Source: Antedon mediterranea
Lineage: Eukaryota > Animalia > Echinodermata
Length of the DNA: 64,000 bases
Direction of reading: 5' to 3'
NCBI RefSeq assembly: GCF_964355755.1
Contig: NC_092677.1
Coordinates: 6,408,101 to 6,472,100 of the forward strand
In this document: positions 7,781 through 34,662 of the stretch, piece by piece
How the letters are laid out: the number at the start of each line of letters is the position of its first letter
Position numbering within the stretch: position 1 is the first letter of the stretch
The notes under the pieces: model-generated
What the model was told of the DNA's origin: nothing
Databases searched by the model: none
Seen by the model: the letters and a program-made list of their open reading frames with translations, nothing else
Made by a program: the position numbers and the translations under genes

Positions 7781-8179
7781 GTAGTAACGCATTTTAGTAG
7801 TATCGGGGATCGGGGATATAATAATACTCCCTGGTTTCAGTATAAAAATAATACAGTTTTTAAATAGACCTACGCGCTACACAATTGGATGCATGTGTAA
7901 TGCCTGGGGTTGCATTCTAAAGCAATGCTTTAGCGTAGAATTGTACATATGCATTTGGCCTACCAAATATATTTTGGTATTAACCGTTCCTTTGCATTAT
8001 GATTTTTTTTCCAAATAATATCTCAGAAAGATATATAGGCCTAAACACATTGAATATAATATCTGAATATAGTAGACACGCATGTTTGCTTGGTTATTAT
8101 TATGTTTTATTTGAACTTCCATGAATCTTTTTGGTACACATCAGCTTCTATTATCTGAGATAATTACCATGTTGCTATG

Positions 8180-8800
8180 AGTAGGGGTTATCCAATTCTG
8201 AAGAGCTATTTAATGTGTTACAGTACCCTCAAATTCAAATACATATTTTTCTGCGACCGTTTGAATAGGAGTAATTATTCCATTATGCAGTCCTCCTGCT
8301 GCATATCTAGAACAACGTTTAATTGAAGTGTATGTTTTAACCATTGTAACTTACAGGCCATTTTCATGTTGTTGAATGTGACAGACATCTTTATTTTATT
8401 AAGCGTTGATACCACCCAAAGATACTGATACATTTCTCTAATAAATTCCTTGTAGCCATCATTTATTCATGTAAAATCGAAAACATTTCGTAGTGTATTT
8501 TGATACATTTAACGGAATGGACATGGATGACTGCACCTTGTGATATGCCTTGCCTATCAATTGACTAGGCCTACACTTTATGTGTAAAACTAAAATGACC
8601 CTTCTGGGAAGCTACAATTTTGAGGAATTCCATTTGCACTTTGTTTGAAAAGTCTTTTTCTGTAGAGCCGCCGAAACTTCTAAGCAAACCATCAATGTCA
8701 CCATGAGCATCAGTGGGGTTTTTCCGTCTGCTGTGGACATGCTTTTCCGGAATTTTCATTTAACACAGCGGGCTTTATAAAGTAGATTCGTAATTATTAT
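8180..8800 (-). pseudogene. Degraded relic of the UBL-ART exon of the kinase-UBL-ART family
   Basis: Matches to paralogues: ATTCTGAAGAGCTATTT, GCGACCGTTTG..GGAGTAATTATTCC, GTAACTTACAGGCCATT, TGCACCTTGTGATATGCCTTG. Translates DIDGLLRSFGGSTEK. Many deletions and frameshifts, and no kinase exon. Confidence 0.8.
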
Positions 8801-10097
8801 TATAAAAGAAGTATGATTTATTTGTTTGTAAAAGTTAATACCATGTAGCTAATTTTGTTACAATAGATTTTGACAAATGTGAGGAGGCGGCTAGGTGCGG
8901 GGGCTGGAGGAGAATTAAAATTAAGATAGCTAAATGAGATATTAATTCTGTTTTATTATTATTTTTTTAAAGGTACGAATCTGTAAAAGCTTGATATACT
9001 TTTAAAGAATATGAAGATTTTTGCATGCATTATTAATTATATTATTATTTTACAGATTATAGACAAAGAAAAAAAATCCCCAAAAATAGTTATATTATCA
9101 CAAACATTATACCAAATACTTTCCACACACCGTCATCACTACTGTAAATATACATTGATACATTTAATCGTATTGCAGACTATCTAACCACTACTATACA
9201 ATGTATTGACAATTTAAAAATTATGAATACTATATTTTTAGATAGAAATATACATTTATATTACTCATAAACCATTAATCGATGGTTATTCGACAACGAG
9301 TATATTTGACGCCCTCTATTTTAAAATATTGGTGGACTTCTTGATTAAATAGTTATAAAATAAAACACAATGTTTTACGCGGTTGATGACAAATTACTTT
9401 TGAAAATCATAACAATCGCGTCCCGCCAATACCCACATGGGGTATATTGGTAACAATATTTGCATGTGAACTGTGTACGCGGTAAAGACTACATTGCTAA
9501 ACGTTAATAGAAATAAAAGATAGTGCCGCCACGATAGAATACAACAAGCACGAATGTGCGATACTCTGGGTACAGCAGCAAAAGAAGCTCTAATGACGTC
9601 ATAAGACCGGATGTAACGTCACATACACATCAATAACCTCGCTACCAAATACGGCTATACGGTACCATCTTCGAGACGTGATATGGCTGCATCCGGTTTG
9701 AAATTTAAAAATCCATAGCTTTGAGGACATGGATGTCCCTGTGGTATATTCATGCCAAATCCCAGCTCCATACTACAACGAATAAGGGAGGAGTAGTACT
9801 TTATAAGTATATATAGTACTCAATAGTGTCCAGATGGAAGAAGAAGAGAAGATGAGAGAGTACTAGACTCAGGTACTTTGAGTAAAAATATTTCCTTTGC
9901 TATTATATTATATCTTCATCTTAATGTATCTACGTGTCCGAATACCATTTTGAGCACTTCTTTGTATTACTATTTCTTGTACTTTCTTATACGAGTCTTC
10001 TTGAATATTTTATGAAACTTTCGAAGGTATGTTCAGGTAAACGACTAAAGGGATGAGTTTTACATAGTCCTCGTATATGTTTAAATTGTTTAGTCAT

Positions 10098-12044
10098 TTA
10101 GTCATCATCTACCAAGCGAACAATGATACCATATGGCCTGACATCTGAAAACCCATTCTCTAAATAGCCTTTTGATGAAAGCCAATATTCAACCGATTCT
10201 TCTGAACCTTCTCCTGGAATCACTACCATGTTTCCATTTTTCTTATCTGGATTAACCCGATTCTGTAGAGCAATTTGGTAGGTATGTCCTTCGAAATAGA
10301 ATGTCTCAGCAAACTTATCGGCAACAATGTCAAGAGAAGGGGTGGTAAAAACGCCTTGTATGGGTTCGTTCGTCGCAATACTGCCATGTACAATGCAGTT
10401 ATTTCTCATCTTTGACCCATGGTAGCTTACAGGCCATTCATTTGGTGACGAATCTGTTCTACTTCTTTGCTCTCCCAACCAAATATCATCTTCGTACTGA
10501 CCTTTAACCTTAAGTGCATGTCTGTACCAACCACATGGTCTCTGATACGTGTGGTCACCTCTGAAATACTGTGTATTACCATCATTCAATTTTGTGAAAT
10601 TATAGTTATATCCTGGATCAAGAAGGGATTCATCCATTTCGTACAATACTTGACTTGAACCAACAGAGTGAGCGTGAACAACTGACCCATGTTTGATACC
10701 TTCTTGTCGAATCGGTGTCTCGTCCTCAATTCTACAGGCTCGGTGAAACAACTCTAGATAGTCACCGGGAAGGTGGGAATTTAAGGAAATTAGTTTCCGC
10801 AGATCGGATACAGTAGCGTCACTTGAAATTCCAAATACACCCGTAGAGCCACCTTGACTTTTAACGAATATATCGATAAGATTTTCGTCGACAACATCCG
10901 TTTCTCGTTTTTCATTAAAACTCATTGCTGGATTTGTGAAGTGAAAGAAATCATGGATTGTGATTTTCCTGACGTTAGGATGACCTGGTAATTTGGCAGC
11001 TTCTCCTGGAAGCAAAACTTCGACCCCTGTGCAAGCCTCAATTCCAGCTGCCACAAGTTCTACTGATGATAGGTTTGGTTGTTTTACCTGTGAATAGATG
11101 TTATATATTATAAAAGTTATAAATTACCAATTTGACCAATATTTACAATTTATTTTATACACTACACCACACAAGACAAATGAAATTAGAACACTTACCG
11201 GACCATCATGTTGCATGATTTGACGATAGACAACGCGTGCTTTTGGTCTTTCGTGGTAATCTTCTTTCAGCATGTTTGTAATTAGCTTTTCCATGAAGTC
11301 GTCGCCTAGATTACTTAAGGTCAAACTATGGTCACCTTTACTAACCATCATAGCTGTACATTGCGCTCCAATTTTTCGTTTCAATTCGTCACTTAACGTT
11401 GCACAAAAGAGTAAACCGAGACTGAAAATATCAGCCTGTAAGTTGTAGTGTCGTTGCATTACTTCTGGAGCCATATAGGCAAGAGTGCCACCTGCTGTAC
11501 CCATGTATATTTTATCAACGTTCACTTCACTGTCAGGTCCTACTACCAGTTTAGCTTGTCCAAAATCTGCTATCTTAGCAACACCGTCTCTACTAACTAG
11601 GATATTTGCTGGTTTTAGATCTCGATGTATGATTGGAATTCTATGAAGATACGCTAATCCGGCACACATATCTTTAATAAATTGCTTTCGTACCTCAGTC
11701 GTTGGCTTTATTTTTTCTAGGTAAACATCCAGGGATCCATGTTCACAGAATTCTAGAACTATGAATGTTATTTCAGAAACTTCGTGAAATTCAATCAATC
11801 TTACGATGTTCTTATGATTAGCCTTTTTCAATGTTTCTGCTTCTCTTGGATTGACTTTTTTCAATTTCTTAATGGCAACAATTTCTTTTGTTTGCTGGTG
11901 TTTTCCTTTATGTACAGTACCAAAATTACCTTCTCCAATTTTTTCGCCTAAATCGTACGGGAACCCCTGATGCTGTGTCACTGACTGTAGAGAAACAGTG
12001 GATTGTGAGCGACTCTGCGGACGACTCTGGTTGTTACCTCCCAT
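10098..12044 (-). CDS. Copy A: PDIK1L/STK35-like kinase + ubiquitin-like + NEURL4-like ART-fold protein (exons 12044-11199, 11087-10098; ~611 aa)
   Basis: Kinase motifs GEGNFG, VAIK, HRDLKPAN, DFG, APE, ADIFSLG. Donor CCG|GTAAGT at 11198 and acceptor TTCACAG|GTA at 11088 are both phase 0. UBL IDIFVKSQGG...GIKHGSVVHAH. ART-like RPCGWYRHALKV..WPVSYHGS..GVFTTPS..QIALQNRVNP..EYW..DVRPYGIIVR. Confidence 0.85.
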
Positions 12045-12446
12045 ATTTGAAAAGTATATAGGTACTGTCAGTACTGACCTTATTAAAAAAATGATAACAA
12101 TTATTCATGTTAACAAATTTCAAAGCATTCATTTGTAAGCTGCTATGATGTATGCTAAAATTGGCATAGCCTTCCCGTGATAAAATGTGAAGGGTTTTTC
12201 CTAGGCCTAAATGTATGTAATGTAATATGTAATAATGCCTTTCCTATAACAATGAAGGCAAACAACCAGCAACGCATAACAGAGCTATTAACTGTCAAGT
12301 GAAAATATCCGTTCCTGTTTTAATCTAGCCGTATACTTATATGATAGTATGTTTATATGTTTTTAAAAATTGTAACGGTTTAACACAGAATGTTTTACTA
12401 ATTTTAAATCAACTATTTAAGATACAATTAAATTACTGTACATTAT

Positions 12447-12530
12447 ACTTACACATTTAAAAACGACGAGTTCCTGCTAAACTCCTCAAAGATGGCGGTA
12501 TGGGATTTCCAGTTTTCCTAAAATAACTAT
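12447..12530 (-). promoter_or_regulatory. Putative non-coding first exon/promoter of copy A, with YY1-like AAGATGGCGG and kappaB-like GGGATTTCC (12502-12510)
   Basis: Minus-strand donor (ACTTAC on +) and a plausible acceptor near 12079 just upstream of the ATG. The block is conserved in paralogues. Confidence 0.5.
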
Positions 12531-13889
12531 TATAGGCTTATGGGTTTTTTTTTCCGGAAATGTTTGTTATGCTCCGGACGAATCGGAATTGTTGAATCGT
12601 TGTTGATTTACTGTATGCTTTATGTTTGTAGAAACGTCTATCATGCAGTGCGTAATGAATATATTGATTCTAAAGGCTAATACAAATGTGAAACCTACTT
12701 ATCGTAAAGATACTATATACTATTATTCGTGACCTCAACGTGTAAATGTATTCTGTACTATCGATGGGTCACGGTGTAATGTAAGGAAACAGTAGGCTCT
12801 AAAACGACTTGACATACACACACATAATTTTCCAAATCATAAGCGACATTTTTTTTTCAATTTTGCTTGTACCGTCACTTTCATTCATTCATTCAACATG
12901 ATTACTATACAGTCAGTAAATTGTGTTCGTTGTTGTAAATCTACAATCTTTATTTACCGATTGTTATACAATAATATAATCCTCCTTTTCGAATATTTCG
13001 TAACCTCATTATCCATATAATAGATAATGATATAAATATTTTTAATAACCATGTATTATAGAAAAAACACGATTTATTCATTCATAAAATAAGTCAATTA
13101 GTAATACTTGTCATTATAGCATCTCCGTGTATCTGTTTAAGTTTGTTTTATATAATATAAATTCTCTTTTTTCGTATATTTTTAACAGTTTTATCCATAG
13201 TAGGCCTATAATAAATATAAGATATTAAAAATGGGCCATATTTATAGAAAAAAGACCAAAGTACCAAAACCTGCAGTTTTGATGATCCGTAATTTGCGAT
13301 TGATTGCTTGATTGGAATTACTTGCGCGTAGGCCTACGTATTTGTGATTTTTTTGGATTGTATTTAATATGTGAACATAGGAGACAAACGTGTTTGATCT
13401 GTTATCTTATGTTTTATTCCAGGAATATTTATCTGTTGGTAAATGTCAGCTTTGTTATCTAATTTATTAAAAAAGATAAAATAATTGTAGTGACAATTGT
13501 TCTCGTCCTACTTCAATAGGTCTAGTAGGTATTCGGAAATTATTTCTTCTTTTTGAACTATTATACAAAATACAATCTAGACCAACAACAAGGCTGTGAA
13601 TTAGGTGTACAGTATATACAATTATTATAATTATAATACATAAAAAAAGAATTATTATTTAGCGCAAACATTTAGTTACCATGCTATTAATTCCAGTAGT
13701 AAATTCCAAATTTAATTAATTATTGTTTTCCTCTGGGAAATTATACAAATAAGAACACATAAAAAAGTATAAAAATATATAATGCAAAATGCATATAAAA
13801 ATGTTTACATCAAAGATAAAAATGTTGTGTAAACAATATTGATTTGTTATGAAACAGCATTTTTATTGCAATATTTTTAACTTTTTAAC

Positions 13890-14854
13890 TTACAATTTAC
13901 GAATAAGAATACCGTATGGTCTAACATCATTAACATCTTTGGAAGTGTCTTCCTTGGGCGACAACCAGTAATCTGCTGTTCCTTCTCCTGGGATGATTTC
14001 CATGTGGCCAGAACTAGGATTTATCCGATTCTGAAGAGCTATTTGGTAAGTGTTACCTTCAAATTCAAATACTTCAGCATATTTTTCCGCGACCGTTTGG
14101 AGAGAAGGAGTAGTTATGATTCCCTCCTGCAGTTCTTCTACAGATCCAGCACAACTTCCAATGGGAGTGTTATCTCTGGTCATTTTGGAACCATGGTAAC
14201 TTACAGGCCATTCTCCTGTTGTTGAATGTGTTCTTATTCCGGGACCTCCAAGCCAAATGTCGTCACTGTATTGACCTTTGACTTTGAGTGCATGTCTAAA
14301 CCACCTACAAGGTCTCTGATACTGATGTCCTCCTCGAATAAACTCCTTGTCGCCATCATCCATTTCAGTAAAATCGAAGTTAAAAGACGGATCTAACAGA
14401 TCGTTATCCATTTCGTAGTGCACCGTCCCCTTATCATTTTCAACGGAATGGACGTGGATAACTGCACCTTGTGATATGCCTTGCTTATCAATTGAATGGT
14501 CATCATCTACTTCACACTTTTTGTAGTAAAGCTCAAATGACTCTTCGGGAATCCTCATTTGTGAAGCTACAAGTCAACGAATTTCAAGTGCATTTGCTTC
14601 TTTTGAAATCCTTGCCTTTCCAGTAGTGCCGCCGACACTTCTAAACAAAATATCGATGTCATTAACATCTGTGCTTTTGTTGGAGTTAGGGTTATTTTCA
14701 TTAACACAACAGGCTTTGTAAAGTGGAATAGGTCGTTTAATTGAATCTTTTGATGTGACGATGATCCTTCTCCGGGTGGTCTTATCTCAACACCAAGAAA
14801 AGCGGACATTCCAGCTGCTAGCAAATTCAATGATTTTATGTTCACTTCACCAGT
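13890..14854 (-). pseudogene. Copy B second exon (linker-UBL-ART), disrupted
   Basis: Acceptor TTGCAG|ACT at 14855 is retained. There is a 1-nt frameshift near 14705 (VVLMK vs VVLNE) and a CGA>TGA stop near 14577. The ART portion 14558-13890 is still open. Confidence 0.8.
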
Positions 14855-15257
14855 CTGCAAATAATAAAACAAATAACTTGACAATTTCCATTTTATCATT
14901 TACAAGTTTATATTCAACTTACTCTAACTCTATACCTTACAAAAAACAATACATATACGTGACTGTATGTGATTCTCAAACCGTGCAAAATCATTTACAA
15001 TACAGCTTAATACTATTAGAGGAAGCCTGCACTAAATGCGATAATTGTGTGCAGAAGATTGGTTCAACTAGTAGAATATAATACGATAAGAAGACGTAAT
15101 GGTAATATAGCAGATGTTGACGATACAGCATCAATCTAATATTACTTTCCATTATTTTTTATTTATCATTTTGCATGGGTGTGAATCTCTACCAAACTTT
15201 GAAATAATAAAATCCACCAAACTTGTATATGTTTACCTTTTTATCAAGCTGCAATAA

Positions 15258-16094
15258 CTATGTGCTAATCTCTTGAGCTTTTGGTCTCAAATGGTAATCT
15301 CGCTGAAGCATCTGTGTGATCAATCTATGCATAAACTTTTCAAATTTCACCGGTACTGTGTACGTGTATTCTGGAAACATATGCATCTTCAAACCAACCA
15401 TTTCCTTCTCAATACTTCCCTTTAATTCATCATCTAATATACAACAGAAAACAATACCCATGCTGAAAATATCTGCCTGAGCATTGTAATGTCTTTTGGT
15501 GACCTCTGGAGCTGCGTATGCATATGTCCCAGCCATCGAACGCATATACATTTCTTCGAGTTTTTTGCCATTGCTTGTTTTTGACAAAATCTTTGCTAAT
15601 CCAAAGTCAGCTAGCTTCGCAACACACCGAATGTCAACCAAAATATTTGCTGGTTTAACATCCCTGTGTGATATCTTGAGCCCGTGTAGATGCGCTATGC
15701 CTGAAGCTATGTCCTGAATGAAACCCATTCGTACCTTGAGGTTAGGTTTTTTAGATTTTATGAAACTTGTTATGTGTCCAAAATCACAGTACTCCATCAC
15801 TATATAAATGGTGTTTCCAATTTGGAAGCTTTCCATATACTGTACAACATTTTTATGAGTTGCAATTTTTAGTGATTCAATTTCAGCTAACATATGTGGA
15901 TCTTGATCTTGGTTAGGCCTTTGTAATTGTTTAATGGCAACTGTTTTATTTGTTTGTTGGTGCTTTCCTTTATATACAATACCAAATTGACCTTCTCCAA
16001 TTTTTTCGCAGAAATCGTACGACAAACACTGATTTTCTGTTACTGGCTGTAGAGAAACAGTGGACTGTGAACGACTCTGGTTGTTACCTCCCAT
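15258..16094 (-). CDS. Copy B kinase exon (278 aa), ended by a premature TAG; kinase-only product or pseudogene
   Basis: Full kinase motifs (GEGQFG, VAIK, HRDVKPAN, DFG, APE). TAG replaces the AAG seen in paralogues, a few codons before a retained phase-0 donor AAG|GTAAAC at 15236. Confidence 0.75.
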   Translation of the reverse strand: MGGNNQSRSQSTVSLQPVTENQCLSYDFCEKIGEGQFGIVYKGKHQQTNKTVAIKQLQRPNQDQDPHMLAEIESLKIATHKNVVQYMESFQIGNTIYIVMEYCDFGHITSFIKSKKPNLKVRMGFIQDIASGIAHLHGLKISHRDVKPANILVDIRCVAKLADFGLAKILSKTSNGKKLEEMYMRSMAGTYAYAAPEVTKRHYNAQADIFSMGIVFCCILDDELKGSIEKEMVGLKMHMFPEYTYTVPVKFEKFMHRLITQMLQRDYHLRPKAQEIST

Positions 16095-16842
16095 GTTTTA
16101 ACGATTAGATATTCAATGCATACCTATAATATATAATTTTTATAAATTGTTATGATTTTGTTAGTATATTTCACACATATTAAACAGTATTATAGGCCTA
16201 CGTTTTAAAATACCACCATTTTTGTAAAGTTAGAATTGAATTTGACCCTACTTTAAAGATAGAAATGTTGGCCACCACAAAGTAAATGTTTCACAAAGTA
16301 AATGTTTAAATTGTGTAACCTTTTTTTCGTTGAAAGCATGGCTGTTCTATTTAATTCTTCTTCGCCTGCCTGAATAGAACTTTAGGTTTTCAATGAATCT
16401 CACTTTTCAACGTATACAACACAATAATATTTTTTTTTTAAATTACATACTGTTCTAAAATATACTGTGTTCAATTAGTCGGTCGCTTCCATCTTGAATC
16501 AATTGTAGAGGGCTCGGATGTTCGCCGAAGAGCAGATCAGACAAAAAGCTTGTTTCACGTGTATTCGAAACAACTTCACAGTTCAAATTAATCAGATACT
16601 CATCGCCACGTGATACAAAAACAACCAACCATTGGCAAAAATATACACTTGTGTGTTATTGTATTCAGATATTATATGCTACTGAGTCTGAGCTTCAACT
16701 TTGTGGTAGGCCTATGTAAACCTATATATGTTGTCGTCTGACAGTTGCTAAAGAGGCGCAATTATCATTAAAGAAGTGTGTACACTAGTTTAAATACTTT
16801 GGTGTACAAACAAAAATTCCAATAAGGTTACAATAATCCAAT

Positions 16843-16940
16843 ACTTACCTGTAATAAAACCAAGAGTATGCTTCTTATTAAATGCATAGAACCGGTACAA
16901 GATGGCGCTGTTGGTATTTCCAGTTATTCTTAAAATAGAT
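16843..16940 (-). promoter_or_regulatory. Putative first exon/promoter of copy B
   Basis: ACTTAC...AAGATGGCG..GGTATTTCCAGTT is paralogous to 12447-12530. Confidence 0.5.
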
Positions 16941-17456
16941 ATACAGTCCTAATTTTTTTTCTATTAATACATTTTATTTTCAATAAAACCATCCAACTTA
17001 ACATCTAATATACTATTAACAATGTTTGTTTTTTCATCTGATTAGAACAATAATTTGTATTCATTTCGTAACATATTATCATTATTTTTTGTTTGTATCT
17101 ATATAATTCTACAAGTCCTATGCATTCTGCGACGAATCGAAATTGTGGAATTTTTATTGGTACTGTGTGCTTTATGGTGGTATTTAATGGTTTCAATAAA
17201 TGTGTTGTGTAAATAGACAGTGCGTTACTCTTGACCAAACTATGGATGTTTTGTAATGTCGTCGTATTACCATGAAAAAAATGTCATAGTTATACAAATC
17301 ACATCTTTTGGAATTTAAAAACATTATTCATTATTCGTTTTCTTCCAATATGTTCAGATGGATCTCAACAAACAATGCCTAACCCTCGACCGCTGTATAA
17401 TTGAATTTCAATTTGTGTTATAAATGAATGTGTCTCGCGACATTGCTCTGGAATGT

Positions 17457-17593
17457 AAGCTTGGTTCCCACTACAACACGAGTGATTTGGCCAATGACAA
17501 GCGATGGATTATTTGATCTTTCGCTTATCATTGGTCAACCCGATTTTGTTGCGTCTACATCCTTGCGTTGTGTCTCTAGTGGGAACCAAGCTT
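17457..17593. mobile_element. MITE with TIR AAGCTTGGTTCCCACTA
   Basis: Perfect 17-bp inverted termini. A second copy lies at 1838-1950. Confidence 0.75.
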
Positions 17594-19096
17594 TATTAAT
17601 ATGATTTGATCGGCATAGATTACATTAAAGCATGGTGAAACGGAAGTATTATGTCGACCAATAGTACAAGTACAAAACAAGATAATAAGCTAAATTCTTT
17701 CTACCTTTATTTACAACATCTGTGACTTCTTGTTACAATAGCATTAATGCATACCGGACTCTAACCCTTACTCGTAATGAACGACGAGTACAAATCTTCC
17801 CATCTATTTATGCCCGTTTATGTATTCCTTTACTTTATAAATTACTCATGCATAACGGAGTGTAACTAGCGCCTTCACATACGTTACAGTGCGCTGTTCT
17901 CCGAATATTTTGGTTTGAAATAATGATAACTTGCCACTATAGGCCTAATGTTGCTACTGACATGATACATGATGAAAATAGTGTTAGTTATAAAAGAATT
18001 GCAATTAACATTGACACATCAGTCTAATAGAAGAAAATGCAGCAACAATAGATGATTTGGTCAGAGGCAACAGTGATTTAGATCGATGTTTGTACTCCCA
18101 TTTGTTGAAATGTCAAATCTCTGTTTCAATATTTCATATTTTGTGATAACAATCTGTGTAATGTAATTTCCAGAAACCTGGAGTTGATGGGCTTAGTCAT
18201 TTATAGAATATTAATATGCAATGTGTGAATGATTTGTGTATTATAGGCTTATGTACGTATATAAACCTAATAATTTATCAACGTTATAGTAGAGTAATGC
18301 AAACACACAGTTCAAGGTACAAATTACAATAAAATCAGTTTTGCAAAGACAAATGAAAAAGTTCAGTTCAAAAGCCAAATGTATTTTGTTGGTACACAAT
18401 AAACAGTGTTCTTGGACGTCGTCACGTACAGTAAAAGTTCAATGTGCTATCAATATGCTAACTGGTATATGGTTGAGACGTGTCAATACCAAAGTGTAAA
18501 TAAAATCGTATATGTAGCATGTTATGGTGGAGTGTACGAATTCCTTTTCATTATTTACCATGGTGTAAAAATGTATAGGCTTTATGTATGAATTAGTTAT
18601 ATGATAGAAATGAATTTACATTACATTGATTCAGTGAAAGGAAAAGAACACTGTGCAGCAAAACGCAACAAAATAAATATAATGGAACAAATCAGGTGAA
18701 ATAGGGCATGTTAAAATTCAAACACCAGAATGTACATAACAATTATGGTCGTTACAACTTCCGTGTTGGGAAAGACTATATTATTTTCTGCGCATAATAA
18801 CCACATAAAGTGTCATCATCAGAGAATGTAGAAACATTTCTAGTGATAAGAGAAGAATCCCGAATTATAATCTGTTAAACCATATTATAGGGGCCTACAA
18901 TAATACTTAGTGGCTGGTCACGTTATAGTCTACCCTTTACAATTCTGAAGTACTGTAGGCCTAAAGTGAATTTTAGCTTCAACAAATAAACAAAACAAGT
19001 GTTGTTTTTAATGAGGTACTCGATAATTTTAGCCCTCCGAATTTCACCCAATATTTACACGCCGCGAGTACCCCACGTTTTATCACGATATGTGTG

Positions 19097-21070
19097 TTAA
19101 TCATCAGTTACGCTAATCCTACGAATAAGAATACCGTATGGTCTAACATCATTCACTTTCTTGGAAGGGTCTTCCTTAGGCGATAACCAGTAGTCTGCCG
19201 GTCCATCTCCTGAGATAATCACCATGTGGCCAGAACTAGGATTTATCCGATTCTGAAGAGCGATTTGATACGTTTTACCATCAAATTCAAATACTTCAGC
19301 ATATTTTTCTGCCACCGTTTGGAGAGAAGGAGTAGTTATGATTCCATTCTGCAGTCCAGCTTGTGCAGACCCAATTGGAGTGTTATCTTTGGTTATTTTT
19401 GAACCATGGTAACTCACAGGCCATTCTCCAGCTGTTGAATGTGTTCTTGTCCCTAGATCCCCAAGCCAGACATCGTCACTGTATTGACCTTTCACTTTGA
19501 GTGCATGTCTAAACCACCCACATGGTCGTTGATACTCATGCCCTCCTCTAATAAATTTCTTGTCGTCATCTATTCCTGTAAAATCGTAGTTAAAAGACGG
19601 ATCTAACAGATCGTTATCCATTTCGTAGTGTGCCGTCCCCTTATCCTTTTTAACAGAATGGACGTGGATAACTGCACCTTGTGATATGCCTTGCTTGTCA
19701 ATTGAATGGTCATCATCTACTTCCCACCTCCTATGGTAAAGCTCAATTGATTCTTCAGGAATCCCCATCTGTGAAGCCACAAGTCGACGCATTTCATTTG
19801 CACTTGCTTTTTTTGAAATCTTCGCCTTCCCAGTAGTGCCGCCGACACTTCTGAACAAAATATCGATGTCACTGACATCATGGACGATCATGGTTTTGTC
19901 AACTGTTTTGCTTTTACTTGATTGAGGGTTATTTTCATTTAGCAACACCGGCTTGGTAAAGTGAAAAAGGTCGTTTAGTTTAATCTTTTGTTGTGAAGAC
20001 GATGATGCTTCTCCTGGAGGGCGTACCTCAACACCAAGACAAGCAGACATCCCAGCGGCAAGCAATTTTAATGACTTTAAATTAGCATCTTTTGGCTGCA
20101 AAAATATAAAATGAAATTCTTTTTTACTTTAAATAAATTTCCATTACACTACAAAAACTAATCATAAGTGGAGGGAGGAAATTACCTTAAAACTAACTTA
20201 CAACTTGTCAACCAAATGTACTGGTGTTTTTTTAGGGGAAATTACCTTTTGACCGTGCTGCATTAACTTTTTGCTAATCTCTTGAGCTTTTGGTCTCAAA
20301 TGGTAGTCCTTCTGAAGCATTTGTGTGATCAATCTCTGCATAAAGGCTCCAACTTTTGCCGGAACCGTATATGTATATCCTTCAGCCACGTGCATCTTCA
20401 AACCAACCAATTCTTTCTCAATACTTTCCTTTACTTCCTCATCTAGTATACAACAGAAAACAATACCCATGCTGAAAATATCTGCCTGGGCATTGTAATG
20501 TCCTTTGGGAACTTCTGGTGCCATGTATACATAAGTCCCAGCCATCGTCTCCATATACATTTCTTCGAGACTTTTCATACCCTCAGTTTTCGATAAAATC
20601 TTTGCTAATCCAAAGTCGGCAATTTTTGCAACTCGTCGGTTGTCAACCAAAATGTTGGCTGGTTTCAAATCCCTGTGTGAGATTTTGAGCCCGTGTAGAT
20701 GCGCAATGCCAGAAGCTATGTCTTGAATGAAACCCATCCGCACCTTGATGTTAGGTTTTTTTGATAGTATATAATCTTCTATGTCCCCGAACTCACAGTA
20801 TTCCATCACTACATAAATGGTGTTTTCATCCGCGAAGCTTTCCATATATTGTACAACATTTCTATGGGCGGCAATTTTCAGTGATTCAATCTCAGCTAGA
20901 ACATCTGGAACATGTAATCTCAGCTCTTTGAATCTTTTTAAGGCAATTGTTTTAGAGGATTTAACCGCCTTGTATACATCCGCAAAAGAACCAGTGCCGA
21001 GACGTCCTACGATCTCGTAGCCATTGACGATTTGGTTCTTGGCTAGGGGTCTGCTTTCGAGGTTTCCCAT
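19097..21070 (-). CDS. Copy C: kinase-UBL-ART-fold protein (exons 21070-20246, 20095-19097; ~607 aa)
   Basis: MGNLES N-terminus. Kinase motifs GTGSFA, IALK, HRDLKPAN, DFG, YMAPEV.KGHY..ADIFS. Donor AAG|GTAATT (20245) and acceptor TTGCAG|CCA (20096) are phase 0. UBL and ART-like motifs are intact. Confidence 0.87.
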
Positions 21071-23000
21071 TGTTCAATCACGTCACTGTACAAAAAGTAA
21101 AAAGTAATATTAAAAATACTCCTACAGTTTAATTATTATATGCATACCGTTACAGTCGATTATTAGTATCTATTTCCGAAGTATCATAGAAATATTTGGT
21201 AATACCACATCACACATGTGTCTAGTACAGTAGTAATTCATAATCATTGGTGTGTTTTGGGGAACCAATGACATGAACTTCCGGTATGAACTGGTTTCAG
21301 ATGTAAGAGTGATTTTCGTGATGTTGCGATATCGAATATGATGTATACAATTCTTCACCAATTCTTTATCATAGCAATTATTGCTTTTAACCTCATACAT
21401 ATTATATTAAATCCGATAATATCAATACTTACGTGCGTTTCTATTCCTTATTTATTTCCTTGTTTATTGCGTAGTACTGTAATTAGTGTTCACTTACTCA
21501 ATCTGGGTAGGCCTATTTATGGAATTTCCAAATAGTATGAAAATAGATGAGGGCGGTGCACAATATCTTTTGAAAACCATATTGTGTTGACATTTCAATA
21601 TTAATATAGGCCTATTATTTTCGGCGTTACGTCATCACTTACATCAATAGAATCCATATAATGAAACATCGTAATTTGCTGACTAAGCCGTTTAACATAC
21701 TAATGCAGTAACAAAAGCCTGGCCTATCGGTTTCTCTGTATTTGAAAGAAAAAATTTCTCTGTTTTAAGTATAAACCAGTACGTTGTTTAATATTATGAA
21801 GCCATTTTATTAATAAACTCATATTTTCATTTTATCATTAAGACCATCAATTTAGAAACAAGTTATTCAATCATACACTTGTGATTCTTTTTATACTGAT
21901 CTATCTCTCTCCCTCCACCTCTGCATTTTATATTTTAATTAAGTTTACAGTTTTATATTTTGTAAAAGCAATTGGCGTTTACGCTGTTGGGGACGGAATA
22001 ATAAAATATTCAAATTGAATAAACATTAAAAACATACAGTTTTACAGAAAAACACAGTTTTGTAAAGACAGAATATAGAATAAGCTTTGTCTATAAAGTT
22101 ATATCACACCATATGTTTTGCAACGCCATTTCACTTCATACCACAGAACAATTGTATTTCATCAACATTGTAATGCGACCTTTTGCTTCTCGGTTGCTAA
22201 TATTTCGCTACTTATTGTAATTTCATTTCTGTTTGAATACACAAAATCTTCTAGATTTAGACATTTGTAAAAGTCGTCTTTTGTTGCATTTGTTAGGCTT
22301 ACCAATTAGTATTGTGAATTAAATATTTTTTTAAACAATTCTTCTTTTATTTTTGTATTTTCAGTTCGCATGATATTTTTTGTTTACACGGTTACGTTGC
22401 GTGCAAACTAAACAAAAACAATTAGTTTACATTGTCAACTTATCTGTTCCTTATTCGAAATGAATTAAATGGATATTATGACAACTCACTGATTTTACAT
22501 ATCGGCCTTAAGACCTGATATGCCTATACTAATCTGTTAAAATGTTTGCTCGTACGTTATGTTAACATTAAACTTCAAATCATTCAAGGAATCTATAGTT
22601 CTCTGATAACAATCATATCATTATCATATAGTGCAAAGTACTGTAGGCTACAGCTATACAATTTACGGTCATAAATTTCATTATCTACAGTTTATTTGAC
22701 TATTTAAACAGAAATTAATGTAGTCATGCAGTAGACACACGAGTATAGTCCTGTCTTCTATATGTACATCTTGTATACTACCTCTAACAGTAGGCCTACA
22801 TTCGGTATCCTCTATCCACGGTTGCTGTCATCCTACATATTTTCTTTTATTTTTATCAAACAAATACCAAAACATTGGTATTTTCTCCTTAACCACGCGT
22901 GTTAGCTTATGAGAGTTATTTTTGCGTGAATATAAAATTTAACCGCTTCAGGCGTTGTTCCAAACAAATGTAGTTTCTTAATAATATACCAATTCTGAAC

Positions 23001-24916
23001 CTAATTGTTGATCTTACGAATAAGAATGCCGTATGGTCTAACATCATATACATTGGTAGGGTGGGAAATGTCTTCCTTAGGTGATAACCAGTAATCTGCT
23101 GCTTCATTCCCTGATATATTGAGCATGTGACCGGGGTCAGGATTTATCCGATTCTGAAGAGCTATTTGATAAGTGTTTCCTTCAAATTCAAATTCTTCAG
23201 CATATTTTTCCGCGACCGTTTGGAGAGAAGGAGTAGTTATGATTCCATCCTGCAGTCCTTCTACCGATCCAGCACAGCTTTGAATTGGGATGTTATCTCT
23301 GGTTATCTTCGATCCGTGGTAACTTACAGGCCATTCTCCAGCTGTTGAATTCGTTCTTATTCCGGGACCTCCAAGCCAAATGTCGTCACTGTATTGGCCT
23401 TTTACTTTGAGTGCATGTCTAAACCACCCACATGGTCTGTGATACCGATGCTCTCCACGAATAAACTTATTGTCGCCATCATCCGTTTCAGTAAAATCGA
23501 AGTTAAAAGACGGATCTAACAGATCGTTATCCATTTCGTAGTGCACCGTCCCCTTATCATTTTTAACGGAATGGACGTGGATAACTGCACCTTGTGATAT
23601 GCCTTGCTTATCAATTGAATGGTCATCATCTACTCTCCAACTTCTGTGGTAAAGCTCAAGCGAATCAACAGGAAGCCTCATCTGTGAAGCTACAAGTCGA
23701 CGCATTTCAAGCAAACTTGCTTTTTTGGAAATCTTCGCCTTCCCAGTAGAGCCGCCGACACTTCTGAACAAAATATCGATGTTACTAACATCATGGACGA
23801 TTGATTGAGGGTTATTTTCATTTAGCACCACTGGCTTGGTAAAGTGAAAAAGGTCGTTTAGTTTAATCTTTTGTTGTGAAGACGATGATGTTTCTCCGGG
23901 AGGGCGTACCTCAACACCAAGACAAGCAGAAATCCCAGCGGCAAGCAATTTTAATGACTTTAAATTAGCATCTTTAGGCTGCAAAAAATATAAAAAGAAA
24001 TTCCTTTTTATTTTAAACAAATTTCCATTACACTACAAAAACTAACTTACTCATAAATTAATTGTACTGGTGTTTTGAGAGGGGAAATTACCTTTTGACC
24101 GTGCTGCATTAACTTTTTGCTAATTTCTTCAGCTTTTGGTCTCAAATGGTAGTCCTCCTGAAGCATTTGTGTGATCAATCTCTGCATAAAGGCTCCAATT
24201 TTTGCCGGCACCGTATATGTATATCCTTCAGCCACGTGCATCTTCAAACCAACCAATTCTTTCTCAATACTTTCCTTTACTTCCTCATCTAGTATACAAC
24301 AGAAAACAATACCCATGCTGAAAATATCTGCCTGGGCATTGTAATGTCCTTTCGGAACTTCTGGTGCCATGTATACATAAGTCCCAGCCATCGTCTCCAT
24401 ATACATTTCTTCGAGACTTTTCATACCCTCAGTTTTCGATAAAATCTTTGCTAATCCAAAGTCGGCAATTTTTGCAACTCGTCGGTTGTCAACCAAAATG
24501 TTGGCTGGTTTCAAATCCCTGTGTGAGATTTTGAGCCCGTGTAGATGCGCAATGCCAGAAGCTATGTCTTGAATGAAACCCATCCGCACCTTGATGTTAG
24601 GTTTTTTTGATAGTATATAATCTTCTATGTCCCCGAACTCACAGTATTCCATCACTACATAAATGGTGTTTTCATCCGCGAAGCTTTCCATATACTGTAC
24701 AACATTCTTATGAGCGGCAATTTTCAGTGTTTCTATCTCAGCTAAAACATCTGGAACATGTAATTTCAATTCTTTAAATCGTTTCAAGGCAACTGTTTTA
24801 GAGGATTTAACCGCCTTGTATACATCCGCAAAAGAACCGGTGCCGAGAAGCTCTACTATCTTGTAGCCGTTGACGATTTGGTTCTTGGCTAGTGGTCTGC
24901 TTTCGAGATTTTCCAT
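23001..24916 (-). CDS. Copy D: kinase-UBL-ART-fold protein (exons 24916-24092, 23978-23001; ~600 aa)
   Basis: Same motifs as copy C. Donor AAG|GTAATT (24091) and acceptor TTGCAG|CCT (23979) are phase 0. The N-terminus is MENLES, lacking Gly2. Confidence 0.87.
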
Positions 24917-25010
24917 TGTTCAATCACTGTACAAAAAGTAAAAAGTAATATTAAAAATACTCCTACCAGTTTAATTATTATATGCATACCGTTACAGTCG
25001 ATTATTAGTA

Positions 25011-25173
25011 TCTATTTCCGAAGTATCATAGGAATATTTGATAATACCACATAAAATGTGTTAAACATGTACCTAGTAGTAACAGAATAACCTAACCATA
25101 CATGATACAGGCCTCCATATGTGATAGAATTGAGCTGTATTACCAAATATTCCTATGATACTCCGAAAATAGA
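25011..25173. mobile_element. MITE in the predicted 5' UTR intron of copy D (only the left end is retained in copy C, 21169-21205)
   Basis: TCTATTTCCGAAGTATCATAGGAATATTTGATAATAC is inverted against GTATTACCAAATATTCCTATGATACTCCGAAAATAGA. Confidence 0.7.
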
Positions 25174-27291
25174 TTGTATGTGGAGATACAGCACTGGGAA
25201 TGCCATATCTGAGAAAATGGGTGGTGTTTTAGGGAACCAATGACATGAACTTCCGGTATGAACTGGTTTCAGATGTTGAACAGAGTGATTTTCGCAATGT
25301 TGCGATATCGAATAAGATGTTTTCAATTCTTCCTCAGTCCCGAAGGCCTATCATATTAATTATTGCTTTTAACCTCATACATATTATAACAAAACCGATA
25401 ACATCAGTACTTACGTGCGTTTCTATTCCTTATTTATTTCCTTGTTTATTGCGTAGTATTAAGTGTTCCCTTATTCAATATGGGTGCGTACTTACCTTTC
25501 TTGTTTTTTGCGTAGTACTTTATTAAGTGTTCACTTATTCTATCTGGGTATTTATGGAATTTCCAAATAGTGTGAAAATAGATGAGGGCGGTGCACAATA
25601 TCTTTTGAGAAACATTATGTGTTGACATCTCAATATCAATATAGGCCTATTATTTTCGGCGTTACGTCGTCACTTACATCAATAGAATCCATATAATGAA
25701 ACATCGTGGATCATAATTTGCTGACTGAGCCGTTTACCATACTAATGCAGTAACAACAAAACCCGTACCACTAGCCTGGCCTATCGGTTTCTCTGTATAT
25801 GAAGGAAAACATTTCTCTGTTTTAAGTATAAACCAGTAGGCCTACGTTGTTTAATTATTATGAAACCATTTATTAATAAACTCATATTTTCATGTTATCA
25901 TTAATACCATAAATTTATAAACAACATTCATACACCTGTGATTATTTTAATAATGATGTATCTCTCTCTCTCTCTCTCTCCATCTCTACATTTTATATTT
26001 TTATAAAGTTTACCATTTTATATTATTTTAAAATAGGCCTACAATAAGTATTGGCGCTCACGCTGTTGTAGAAGGAATATAATAAAATGTTCAAATACAT
26101 AAATACAGTAATATTAAAAACATACAGTTATACATAAAAACACAGTTTTGTAAGACCGAATAGAATAAGCTTTGTCTATTAACCTATGTTTTGCAACGCC
26201 ATTTCACTACATACCACAAAACAATTGTATTTCTTCAACATTGCAATGCGACTATGTCTCGGGAACCTTTACTTCTCGGTGCTTATTGTAATTTCATTTC
26301 TTGGATGTCTAGTATTATTTATTTATTTATTTGTTAAGTTTATTTCAAAAATTTACGAGGGTGGTCTCTCATTTCACGTAAGCATGTTTAGTTTTCTCCT
26401 TAATATTTTTGAAAATTATGTTTTAAATTAAATCATGTCACTTAATGAATAAACAATCTTAGATTTAGACTTTTGTAAAAGTTTAAAATGTAAACATCAT
26501 TTTATATGTTGCCCTTTGTTGTCATTAGTTAGGCTTACCCATTAGTATTTTGAATTAAGTATTTTTTAATACATTTCTTTTTTATTATATTTTATTTTCA
26601 GTTGCATGATATGTGTTTTGCGTTGCGTGCAAACTAAACAAACGAAAAACAAGCTTACATTGTCAAGTTATCTGTTCCTTATTCAAATTGAATTAAATGG
26701 ATATTATGACAACTCGTTAATCTTACATTATCGGCCTAATAAATAAAAAGACTGATATGCCTATACTTTGTGTACTCCTAATCTGTTAAAATGTTTGCTC
26801 GGATGTTATGTTGTAATTAAACATCAAATCATTCCAGGAATCTATAAGCTATCTGATAACAAACTGTCATCGTATCATTATTCGTGCAAAGTACTGTAAG
26901 CTACAGCTATACAATTTACGGTCATAAATTTCATCATTTACAGTTTATTTGACCATCTTAGCCACACGGGTATAATTGTCCTACATTTATTTTCTATCTG
27001 CACATCTTGTAGGCCTATGCAATCGATTGCCCTGCCCCTACAGTTCATTCGGTATCCTCTATCCACAGCTGTTTTTCTTTTCCTGCATACAGGTATTGTT
27101 GTAAAGAACACATGAGTGAAGAAATTTCAACAAACAATACCAAAACATTGGTATTTTGTCGTTATCACGTCTGTTATGACAGTTATTTTTACGTGAATAT
27201 AATATAGATTATAATTTTAACCACTTCATGTGTTGTTCCAAACAAATCTAGTCTGATCTTAATGTTTCTTAATAATATACAATTTCGAAAC

Positions 27292-27709
27292 CTAACTGTT
27301 GTTGTCGATCTTACGAATAAGAATGCCGTATGGTCTAACATCATGCACATTGGTAGGGTGGGAAGGGTCTTCCTTGGGTGATAACCAGTAATCTGCTGCT
27401 TCATCCTCTGATATATTCAGCATGTGACCGGGGTCAGGATTTATCCGATTCTGAAGAGCTATTTGGTAAGTGTTACCTTCAAATTCAAATTTGTCTGCAT
27501 ATTTTAACGCGACCGTTTGGATCGAAGGAGTAGTTATGATTCCATTATGCAGTCCTCCTGCAGATCCAGCACAACTTCCAATGGGAATGTTATCTCTGGT
27601 CATCTTCGATCCGTGGTAACTTACAGGCCATTCTCCAGCTGTTGAATGCGTTCTTGCTTCGGGTTCCCCAAGCCAGACATCGTCACTGTATTGGCCTTTG
27701 ACTTTAAGT
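27292..27709 (-). pseudogene. Copy E: 3' part of ART domain left in the original orientation
   Basis: Reads LKVKGQYSDDVWLG..WPVSYHGS..GIITTPS..DVRPYGILIRK to the stop. It begins abruptly at LKV. Confidence 0.85.
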
Positions 27710-27789
27710 TCAATTCACATTTATTTACTCATCGTTTATAAATACAGTTTCATAGCATAAATGATGGCAAGGATCCTGCATAGAGAAGT

Positions 27790-29170
27790 TTACATTTATA
27801 CAGTGATGGAGTACTGTGATTTGGGGGACATAAACGCTTTCATAAAATCCAGAAAAACCTAACCTCGACGTGCGGATGTGTTTAATTCAAGACATAGCTT
27901 CAGGCATAGCACATCTTCACAGACTCAAGATCTCACACAGGGATTTGAAACCAGGTAATATTTTGGTTGACAACCGACGAGTTACGAAACTTGCCGACTT
28001 TGGATTAGCAAAGATTTTGACAAACAATGAAGGTCACAAACTCCACGAAATGTTTATGGAGTCACTTCCTGAGACGTACGAATACATGGCACCAGAGGTC
28101 CCCAAAGGACATTACAATGCTCAGGCAGATATTTTCAGCATGGGTATTGTTTTTTGTTGTATATTAGATGATGAATTGAAGGGAAGTATTGTGAAAGAAG
28201 TGGTTGGTTTGAAGATGCATATGGTTCCATAATACACGTACACAGTACCTTTATGCAAAGGTTGATCACAAAAATGCTTCAGCGAGATTACCATTTGAGA
28301 CCAAAAGCTCGAGAGATTAAAAGAAAGTTAATGCAGTACGGCCAAGCGGTAAATGAACAGTTTTATTATCTCATATGGGGCCCCAATTTAGCAAGATTTT
28401 AGTAGGATCTACTTTGCTACGATTGACAGTACACTTGAAACAAATATTGCAGTTTTTCGCGTCAACAAAACAGTTTGTACTTTTAGTGCGTATGAACCTA
28501 TATTGGGACACGAGAATCTCTAACTAAAAATTATAATTTAATTTATATTTCTCTGTTTACACGATTCAAACCTTTAAAATACAACGGTTGTAAAAAATGT
28601 TTACAGGGCATTCTTTTATTATTATTTGCAGCCTGGAGTAGTCAACTTGAAGTCACTAAAACTGCTTGCAGCTGGAATGTCCGCTAGTCTTGGTGTTAAG
28701 GTAAACCCGCCTGGAGAAGGATCATCGTCACAACAAAAGATTCAATTAAACGACTTTTTCCACTTTAGAAAGACCTCTGTGCTCAACAAAAACAAAAACG
28801 TTGACGAAATCGATGTTTTGTTTAGAAGTCTCGGCGGCTCTACTGGAAAGGTAAGCATTTCAAAGGAAGCAAGTGCAGCTGACATTCGTCGACTTGTAGC
28901 TCCACAGATTGGTCTTCCTGTTGATTCGCTTGAGCTTTACCACAGAAGTTGCAGAGTAGGTGATGACCAGTCAATCGATAAGCAAAGCATATCACAATCA
29001 TCCACGTTCATTCCGTTAAACAAGATGGTGGAAGTGGGAGGGTGCAATACCAACTGGATGAAGATTTTTTGATCCGTCTTTTACCTACGATTTTACAGAA
29101 ATAAATGACGGAGCCATGGCATTCAGTAGAGGAGCACATCGGTATCAAAGACCTTGTGGGTGGTTTAGAC
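27790..29170 (+). pseudogene. Copy E inverted segment: kinase C-lobe, intron, linker-UBL and start of ART
   Basis: IYTVMEYCDLGD..HRDLKPGN..DFG..APE; donor GCG|GTAAAT near 28349; acceptor TTGCAG|CCT at 28630; ends at RPCGWFR. Frameshifts near 27855 and 28996, stop at 28230, kinase N-lobe missing. Confidence 0.85.
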
Positions 29171-34660: not shown

Positions 34661-34662
34661 AT

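Follow-up and report, generated by a model that had tools for sequence, protein, structure and literature searches.

What do the kinase reading frames that lie in a row in Antedon mediterranea, a feather star, each followed by a second reading frame, encode, and what is the second half of their product for? We analysed a window of 64,000 nucleotides from contig NC_092677.1. A preliminary description of this window had proposed a tandem, birth-and-death family of fusion genes, combining a kinase, a ubiquitin-like (UBL) domain and an ADP-ribosyltransferase (ART) domain, with a role in innate immunity.

Organisation of the array

Feather-star genes that fuse a kinase, a UBL domain and a PARP-fold domain stand in tandem at this locus. 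The birth-and-death picture was borne out: copies A, C and D are intact, B is broken, E is inverted and F is a remnant. The kinase of copy B has an A-like N-terminus and a C/D-type core, and copy E results from a 1.4-kb inversion and has no kinase start; both retain the GT and AG at the equivalent intron sites. Transcript evidence came from X1, a run classed as RNA by the tool's guess and kept as contigs, and X2 and X4 served as DNA-like runs. The features, by window position, are as follows.

11199..12044, minus strand: copy A coding exon 1, Ser/Thr kinase, Met-Gly start, predicted N-myristoylation (Pfam Pkinase 4.8e-52; inside the spliced X1 contig)
11088..11198, minus strand: copy A fusion intron, 111 nt, GT-AG, phase 0 (skipped exactly in X1, retained in X2 and X4)
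10098..11087, minus strand: copy A exon 2, linker, UBL domain and PARP-fold domain, triad positions His-Phe-Glu (Pfam ubiquitin 1.1e-6)
12079..12452, minus strand: copy A 5'-UTR intron, 374 nt (X1 joint, short side 26 letters; splice sites present)
15258..16094, minus strand: copy B kinase exon, 278 aa, stop 7 codons ahead of the donor
13890..14854, minus strand: copy B exon 2, frameshift and in-frame stop upstream of the UBL/ART part
20246..21070, minus strand: copy C coding exon 1, kinase, Met-Gly start (Pfam Pkinase 1.8e-50)
20096..20245, minus strand: copy C fusion intron, 150 nt, GT-AG, phase 0 (skipped exactly in X1; RefSeq XP_071958597.1)
19646..19879, minus strand: copy C UBL domain, about residues 73-150 of exon 2, not followed by di-Gly (fold search)
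19097..19639, minus strand: copy C PARP-fold domain (fold search and family alignment)
19408-19406, 19339-19337 and 19195-19193, minus strand: copy C triad codons, His, Ile replacing the family Tyr, and Asp
21086..21432, minus strand: copy C 5'-UTR intron (deduced by homology with D and from a C-like contig placed on D)
24092..24916, minus strand: copy D coding exon 1, kinase, Met-Glu start (D-specific X1 contigs)
23979..24091, minus strand: copy D fusion intron, 113 nt, GT-AG, phase 0 (RefSeq XP_071957918.1; junction unseen in X1)
23001..23978, minus strand: copy D exon 2, linker, UBL domain and PARP-fold domain (His-Ile-Asp)
24927..25414, minus strand: copy D 5'-UTR intron, 488 nt (X1 joint, short side 27 letters)
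27292..27712, minus strand: copy E, 3' part of the PARP-fold domain in the original orientation
27785..29170, plus strand: copy E inverted segment, 3' two thirds of the kinase, intron and 5' exon 2, frameshifted (tblastn, self-blastn)
8060..8780 (about), minus strand: copy F, decayed exon 2 remnant, absent from the preliminary list (tblastn E 9.5e-21)

Splicing, transcription and selection

The reading frames run across the fusion intron with no internal stop in A (611 aa), C (607 aa) and D (600 aa). In all three, the proposed joining of the kinase and the second reading frame by a GT-AG intron into proteins of about 600 aa held, with the introns in phase 0; the proposed junctions (11199/11087, 20246/20095 and 24092/23978) are the exon ends, and the introns occupy 11198-11088, 20245-20096 and 24091-23979. 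A single X1 contig spans 9847-12076 and precisely skips the A intron, and another precisely skips the C intron, while 9840-12676 is present unspliced in X2 and X4. RNA-like evidence of the kind that the preliminary description had looked to was found for A and C. The kinase/exon-2 junction of D was not seen among the X1 contigs, which cover this copy through the splice of its 5'-UTR intron (24927-25414) and through contigs specific to D in each of the two exons; it is present in the RefSeq model XP_071957918.1 (600 aa), as the C junction is in XP_071958597.1 (607 aa).

The dN/dS of the ART domain was 0.26 for C/D and 0.29 for D/B, indicating that the domain is kept under purifying selection and is not decaying. 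It is also the most conserved part between A and C/D, with 57% identity compared with 42-44% for the kinase.

A rival reading is that separate neighbouring genes or dead copies are joined by a gene-prediction artefact only. The junctions were seen in one run only, whose identity as RNA is a guess and which was kept as contigs, that of D went unseen, and the models of the crinoid Anneissia carry extra kinase domains that are possibly merged neighbours. However, the GT-AG skips in X1 are exact and absent from the DNA-like runs, exon 2 of A, C and D starts without an N-terminal Met of its own, the Anneissia models have the junction at the same position, and dN/dS is well below 1. The artefact is largely refuted by these results, and we consider it very improbable.

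Kinase domain

The Gly loop, AxK lysine, alphaC Glu, HRDLKPAN (HRDxKxxN), DFG and APE motifs are all present in A, C and D, and the three are predicted from sequence to be active Ser/Thr kinases. Of the proposed myristoylation signals, those of A and C stood, as both proteins start with Met-Gly; D starts with Met-Glu and so lacks the myristoylation glycine. The proposed PDIK1L/STK35 identity gained no support, being one among several tied Atlas matches, in which a PDIK1L-like cluster came 12th (score 0.99), level with the PBK, MOS and TSSK6 clusters. A kinase search returned 7 matches at E up to 1e-30, all of them crinoid and with mixed automatic names, and standalone kinases of the same family were found in both crinoids.

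Ubiquitin-like domain

The middle domain had been described as ubiquitin-like without a terminal GG, and Pfam and the fold search agreed on the first point. The Pfam ubiquitin match of copy A exceeds the curated cut-off, and the predicted fold was that of ubiquitin (Z up to 14.1, rmsd 1.1-1.3 A, 76-79 residues). No di-Gly was found at the UBL end in A, C, D or Anneissia P0012; by a crude count, GG lies between the UBL and ART domains in 77 of 117 other rows.

The top fold matches include the UBLs of Dsk2, BAG6 and Rad23, tied with many others, and fit a reading in which the kinase carries out the function and exon 2 serves chiefly as a handle governing the protein's location or turnover, for instance by UBL docking on the proteasome or p97. 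Kinase-only forms, arising by intron retention or as copy B, would then do a similar job. The standalone kinases in both crinoids, the return of copy B to a kinase-only frame, and the finding that translation running on past exon 1 of A, C and D would reach a stop within 25 codons all favour this reading. Nevertheless, a mere handle would not need an ART domain that keeps 38 of 43 conserved positions (below) and leads the conservation between A and C/D, and the X1 contigs across A and C are spliced. We judge this reading rather improbable.

PARP-fold domain and its NAD+ site

An ART fold of the PARP type had been proposed for the C-terminal domain, and searches with the predicted structure support it at middling scores. 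In the VIA fold comparison, the top 16 of the best 50 rows were PARP domains (Z 6.0-7.6, rmsd 3.5-5.0 A, 115-136 residues aligned), and the lower rows were mostly other ART folds. The top 13 Foldseek rows were likewise PARPs (E 4.6e-3 to 2.4e-2), and PARP13, RCD1, SRO1 and TASOR occur among the fold matches. Both folds expected of exon 2, ubiquitin and PARP-like, were recovered in the models.

Conservation was defined on the 216 unfused rows, of which 85% or more agree in 43 alignment columns. Of these positions, 38 were kept in the fused copies and 5 lost, all of the latter between His and Tyr (Fisher p 6e-6; the columns are not independent), including family Ile88, Gly92 and Gly97 of the donor loop and the triad Tyr. 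Among the unfused rows, 206 of 216 carry the triad Tyr, or 155 of 161 when clustered at 70%. None of the 9 fused rows does, and Ile, Leu or Phe holds their second triad position (9/9). The His-to-Tyr segment measures 24-28 residues in fused rows, against a median of 31. Judged from this alignment, the NAD+ site of the fused copies is remodelled, which the preliminary description overlooked; its motif G..TTPS, offered as typical of NEURL4-like ARTs, conceals the loss of the family Tyr. Three of the five positions are also lost in the Antedon standalone protein XP_071956450.1, indicating that the loop change is not tied to fusion alone.

Other parts of the site are retained. His-Gly occurs in 9/9 fused rows (His-Gly-Ser in 8/9), the second aromatic (Tyr/Phe) is kept, and the presumed third triad position is acidic, with Asp in 8/9 and Glu in 1/9 (copy A), compared with Glu in 93 and Asp in 70 of the 216 family rows; this position was equated with PARP1 Glu988 from the motif and not from a residue-level structural alignment. 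The Pfam PARP model matched no fused copy, whereas 68 of 150 aligned rows matched it. The family profile aligned the His...Tyr stretch weakly with PARP16 (E 0.27), and in both models confidence was lowest across the remodelled segment (pLDDT 58-77).

The preliminary description had pictured a dual enzyme. In such a protein an active kinase would be paired with a working mono-ADP-ribosyltransferase or NADase whose pocket is unusual, each activity regulating or complementing the other. The retained residues, the His-Phe-Glu of copy A, which is near a working triad, and the purifying selection on the ART domain favour this, and WWE domains, present in 4 of 33 family proteins scanned, fit ADP-ribose biology. 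Human NEURL4, with its triad listed as H-L-E (PMC7955679 Table 1), is reported active in vitro (PMC8932523), indicating that replacement of the Tyr by an aliphatic residue does not necessarily abolish activity. However, all five losses fall in the NAD+ donor segment, which is shortened and modelled with the lowest confidence, and the Pfam PARP match is missing. The suggested coupling of phosphorylation to NAD+/ADP-ribose chemistry is weakened because the fused copies lost the triad Tyr and the donor-loop signature kept in the family, and we regard a dual enzyme as possible, somewhat on the unlikely side. The sequence suggests that normal NAD+ chemistry has likely gone from the PARP-fold domain, which would now serve the kinase as a binding or regulatory module. 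The best reading pairs an active kinase with a pseudo-ART module used for binding, and we give it an even chance.

Origin and distribution

By homology, exon 2 corresponds to an entire member of a widespread family of standalone UBL and PARP-fold proteins. The similarity is full length, covering the N-terminal segment, the UBL and the ART domain, and exon 2 is nested in the family tree; its residue 4 aligns to residue 2 of the 331-aa XP_071956450.1, with 37% identity over 345 columns (E 6e-78). The ART-domain search found 1061 representatives (50% identity) at E up to 0.001. The standalone proteins (about 320 aa, unnamed family) include, besides that of Antedon, Patiria XP_038077324.1, Halichondria XP_064394810.1 and proteins of Rhizophagus and Dictyostelium, and our literature search found no activity reported for any member. 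Compared with them, the fusion adds an N-terminal kinase, loses the triad Tyr and donor-loop glycines, and lacks the UBL-ART GG.

A kinase was attached in 4 of 228 fetched proteins, all crinoid (Antedon, Anneissia). The architecture had been put forward as undescribed, and the literature search found no published description of a kinase-UBL-ART protein. A quick tree built from 59 rows grouped the ART domains of the nine fused rows in a single clade (SH-aLRT 99), sister to the Antedon standalone protein (SH-aLRT 93).

We propose that a kinase of a crinoid-expanded family landed upstream of a UBL-ART gene and that a phase-0 splice joined the two, probably before the Antedon-Anneissia split. In the standalone gene of crinoids, change in the donor loop may already have been under way, and loss of the Tyr would have come on the branch to the fused copies. 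The A and C proteins are probably anchored in membranes by myristate. The UBL and pseudo-ART domains would bind a partner or ligand and thereby set the activity or targets of the kinase, with phosphorylation as the output. Defence or stress signalling would be the likeliest setting, a suggestion about evenly balanced that draws on analogy and copy turnover only.

Comparison with known systems

The NEURL4-like ART clade, to which the C-terminal domain had been likened, was reportedly defined by de Souza and Aravind in 2012, and Pfam has no model for the NEURL4 C-terminal ART domain. By published description, NEURL4 is a non-canonical PARP-like ART of similar remoteness, scoring about E 1e-2 against PARP1 (PMC10450202), compared with 4.6e-3 at best here. 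Like the fused copies, it combines an HGS motif with an aliphatic residue as the second of the triad and an acidic one close to a Trp, but it has NHR repeats, neither kinase nor UBL, and a reported mitochondrial location.

Pseudo-PARPs have precedents in wheat SRO1, LRRC9 and TASOR. Like the fused copies, PARP13/ZAP, TASOR, LRRC9 and plant RCD1/SRO1 have a PARP fold with an altered NAD+ site, retained for other purposes. They mostly lack the His, whereas the fused copies keep it and change the Tyr and the loop, and none of them is fused to a kinase.

In IKK/TBK1 a ubiquitin-like domain directly follows the kinase, and this order is shared with the fusion. Kinship beyond this order is unsupported because the UBL came with the ART gene, and the C-terminus is a PARP fold in place of the helical dimerisation scaffold of IKK/TBK1; the likeness is convergent. 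IKK/TBK1 were absent from the best 60 PDB rows listed (of 231 and 912 matches), and no window protein matched Pfam TBK1_ULD.

By analogy, a defence role for the fusion proteins is possible. The kappaB-like promoters that had been cited for it went no further than common one-mismatch sites: no exact GGGRNNYYCC site occurs in 10-29 kb, and one-mismatch sites lie upstream of A, C and D, with 111 observed and 74 expected in the whole window. Plant kinase fusion and tandem kinase receptors, such as wheat WTK4, likewise join a lineage-specific kinase to a borrowed domain in a fast-turnover family, and the Anneissia models also show tandem kinases. The integrated domain of WTK4 is reported to bind a pathogen effector. 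These receptors belong to another kinase lineage and another kingdom; the likeness to a fusion known from its sequence is analogy and not membership. The fused genes might be an animal counterpart, a captured PARP-fold gene with a disabled NAD+ site acting as an integrated decoy or sensor; this we consider unlikely. The ART part would then recognise either a pathogen protein that targets ADP-ribosylation or ubiquitin pathways or a signal of the ADP-ribose type, and the attached kinase would switch on. Between C and D, the kinase is homogenised and the putative ligand end diverges, with 100% identity at codons 91-180 and 77-89% across most of the ART domain. If true, integrated-domain kinase receptors would not be limited to plants.

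The array provides a transcribed kinase-UBL-PARP-fold architecture, found so far in two crinoid species as gene sequence, whose making can be read stepwise. Both unfused parent gene types persist in Antedon, and the standalone paralogue has an intermediate state of the NAD+ site, giving a natural series for how an enzyme domain may become a regulatory or sensor module after fusion. The locus also highlights a large uncharacterised eukaryotic UBL-ART family of more than 1000 representatives at 50% identity.

Splicing and transcription of the fusion genes

The kinase-UBL-PARP-fold fusion family is real and transcribed. In the window, whose base composition is that of AT-rich animal DNA, tblastn and self-blastn located five tandem copies (A to E, 10098-29170) plus the decayed remains of a sixth at about 8060-8780. 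Joining the ORF pairs by their coordinates gave open frames of 611, 607 and 600 aa for copies A, C and D, all on the minus strand, in which exon 1 (the kinase) is connected to exon 2 (a linker, a ubiquitin-like domain, UBL, and a PARP-fold domain, ART) by phase-0 GT-AG fusion introns of 111, 150 and 113 nt, respectively. Copy B carries a stop 7 codons ahead of the donor, and its exon 2 contains a frameshift and a stop. In copy E, 27785-29170 is inverted and adjoins the copy's own ART tail.

The joining of the two exons in the preliminary description was then compared with contigs of public sequencing runs and with RefSeq models. Run X1 was taken as RNA by a guess among five public runs, none of them recorded as RNA, and the splice joints back this guess. 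A single 2146-nt X1 contig (9847-12076) omits exactly the fusion intron of copy A and also joins a 5'-UTR intron, and a 751-nt contig omits exactly the intron of copy C, with 243 letters on its short side; this evidence for the A and C junctions comes from contigs of one run in one study. In the DNA-like runs X2 and X4, 9840-12676 is present as one unspliced piece. For copy D, X1 showed the 5'-UTR intron joined and, in each of the two exons, contigs matching with 0-1 differences, but no contig across the kinase/exon-2 junction; the coding parts of copy E had no X1 cover, and neither absence counts for or against the splicing. Over copy B, cover was patchy and carried many differences. XP_071957918.1 (600 aa) and XP_071958597.1 (607 aa) contain the D and C junctions, respectively; both are labelled Antedon mediterranea and named only "uncharacterized protein". 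No RefSeq model for copy A was among the 11 protein matches. X1 supports the exon joining for A and C, and the RefSeq models agree with it for C and D.

Predicted folds of the exon 2 domains

The middle domain is ubiquitin-like by Pfam and by fold search (Z 14.1, rmsd 1.3 A over 79 residues), and the absence of a terminal GG described earlier was upheld. The C-terminal ART domain gave no match in single-sequence PDB or Pfam searches, and a two-domain UBL-ART model matched only ubiquitin in fold searches; therefore, the ART domain was folded alone, giving a predicted model with a pLDDT of 90.8. Foldseek placed PARP catalytic domains in its top 13 rows, with E between 4.6e-3 and 2.4e-2 and none reaching 0.001; in VIA, the top 16 rows were PARP domains (Z 6.0-7.6), and most rows after them were other ART folds. 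Atlas likewise indicated PARP clusters (0.91). Profile-versus-PDB matches to PARP16, Tpt1 and exotoxin A had E values of 0.27-1.1, which are not significant alone. For this predicted model, the scores are middling and the PARP ranking is consistent across searches. Both folds anticipated for exon 2, ubiquitin and PARP-type ART, were recovered from predicted models.

Probable remodelling of the NAD+ site in the fused ART domains

The family motif comprises His-Gly-Thr, a helix with a Gly-rich loop, and then Gly-x-Tyr-Ser/Thr-x-Pro, and the family profile aligned it with the His...Tyr stretch of PARP16 (weakly, E 0.27). Pfam PARP was matched by 68 of the 150 aligned rows and by none of the fused copies. 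We compared the His-Tyr-Glu triad of PARP-like ARTs between nine kinase-linked (fused) domains and 216 unfused domains aligned across at least 130 query positions, leaving out three database proteins that duplicate window copies. The triad Tyr was present in 206/216 unfused rows (155/161 after 70% clustering) and in 0/9 fused rows, where Ile, Leu or Phe takes its place. Across the 43 columns that are conserved in 85% or more of the unfused rows, the fused copies lose 5; all five lie in the His-to-Tyr stretch, the triad Tyr among them (p 6e-6 for this clustering, the columns not being independent), and one is a mild Thr-to-Ser change. The motif reading in the preliminary description had passed over the loss of the family Tyr and loop positions in the fused copies. 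The Antedon standalone protein XP_071956450.1, a UBL-ART protein without a kinase, retains the Tyr and has lost three loop positions; its sequence represents an intermediate state of the NAD+ site.

The fused ART is most likely a remodelled, non-canonical domain. It is not decaying, since its dN/dS is 0.26 (C/D) and 0.29 (D/B) and it is the best-conserved part of A versus C/D. Judged from these sequences, there is about an even chance that it serves as a pseudo-ART module. A dual enzyme, with the kinase coupled to an active ART, is rather unlikely given the five lost columns, the triad Tyr among them. We held the estimates at these levels because the fused copies retain the His-Gly, the second aromatic and the acidic third residue, because copy A has His-Phe-Glu at the triad positions, and because human NEURL4, listed as H-L-E (PMC7955679, Table 1), is reported active (PMC8932523).

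Origin and range of the fusion

With the ART domain as query, 1061 representatives matched at E up to 0.001, and its relatives are described from the best 150. Among the matches listed, most were standalone UBL-ART proteins of ~320 aa, found in sponges, starfish, arbuscular fungi, bdelloid rotifers, Dictyostelium and algae; related ART domains occur in fish. Exon 2 and XP_071956450.1 align along their full lengths, from residue 2 of that protein onward, indicating that an entire UBL-ART coding unit was spliced downstream of the kinase. The two Antedon standalone proteins are both on a contig of 30.56 Mb, compared with 28.59 Mb for the fused models. A quick tree built from 59 of the 225 rows united the nine fused domains in a single clade (99) whose sister was the Antedon standalone protein (93); A-like and C-like types occurred in Antedon as well as in Anneissia.

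A kinase was present in only 4/228 proteins fetched, namely two Antedon models and two Anneissia japonica models (XP_033122888.1 and XP_033122901.1, which share a scaffold and have accession numbers close together). As the search for long proteins was word-limited, absence of the kinase fusion outside crinoids is weak evidence. So far, the fusion is a crinoid-only combination of known parts. No description of it was found in literature titles and abstracts, a search that covered subscription papers thinly. De Souza and Aravind in 2012 and Aravind et al. in 2015 reportedly define the NEURL4-like ARTs and may list domain architectures.

Both Anneissia models have additional kinase domains (kinase-kinase-UBL-ART), which may be real tandem-kinase forms or merged neighbouring genes. 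The standalone UBL-ART family is large and uncharacterised, with a patchy range; some members have a WWE domain or several ubiquitin repeats, and in many a GG separates UBL from ART, hinting at cleavage-mediated release.

Kinase exon and copy turnover

Exon 1 encodes a kinase by Pfam (E about 1e-50), with complete catalytic motifs in A, C and D, and the N-terminus is Met-Gly in A, B and C and Met-Glu in D. Its nearest kin are standalone crinoid kinases (7 matches, E up to 1e-30). No placement in PDIK1L/STK35 or another named kinase family was obtained, and the best PDB rows (GCN2, CDPK, MST and ULK) gave no clear winner. IKK and TBK1 have a kinase-UBL domain order, and the fusion proteins have it likewise; as the UBL arrived with the ART gene, this likeness is convergent, and the proposed IKK/TBK1 kinship was rejected as unsupported.

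In the kinase tree, A-like and C-like types recur (support 100/99), and a single origin of the cluster's kinases was not rejected (p-AU 0.21). The copy B kinase is chimeric, with an A-like start and a C/D-type core. At the DNA level, codons 91-180 of the C and D kinase exons (20246-21070 and 24092-24916) show 100% identity and most of the ART domain shows 77-89%, suggesting recent gene conversion of the kinase exon. Pairwise dN/dS revealed no positive selection (C/D 0.15-0.39), site-level selection being beyond the reach of the method; the UBL value for D versus broken B was 0.87, and comparisons involving A were saturated. Copy turnover, the chimeric B and a C/D kinase that is homogenised next to an ART that diverges would fit a conflict-type gene family but fall short of proof; the immune role put forward in the preliminary description is a candidate function.

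Promoter-like elements and other features of the window

Exact kappaB consensus sites were absent at 10-29 kb, and the claim of kappaB promoters was dropped as unsupported. Copies A, C and D have one-mismatch sites upstream of their 5'-UTR exons, those of C and D being duplicates of each other; the whole window has 111 such matches versus 74 expected. Exact matches occur in the window only at 41326-41355 and 47462-47631, away from the fusion genes.

Three look-alike elements share GCCATCTT, which we take to be YY1-like, ahead of a GTAAGT donor:

7400-7470, minus strand, with nothing matching the kinase or the ART further downstream in the window
12450-12520, minus strand, preceding copy A
16845-16930, minus strand, preceding copy B

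The element at 7.4 kb is perhaps the orphan promoter of a lost copy. The other features of the window are:

34651-38233, plus strand, LTR retrotransposon with long open frames and domains for protease, reverse transcriptase, RNase H and integrase
43346-59987, plus strand, large multi-exon gene that carries a PHD finger (E 6e-4, short of the curated cut-off) and is KMT2/trithorax-like by eye
57397-58001, 117-bp coding tandem repeat inside that gene
49849-51858, minus strand, LINE-like reverse transcriptase ORF within the span of the same gene
3030-4491, complex satellite with a 21-bp unit and 76-bp higher-order periods

The satellite gives long spurious ORFs.
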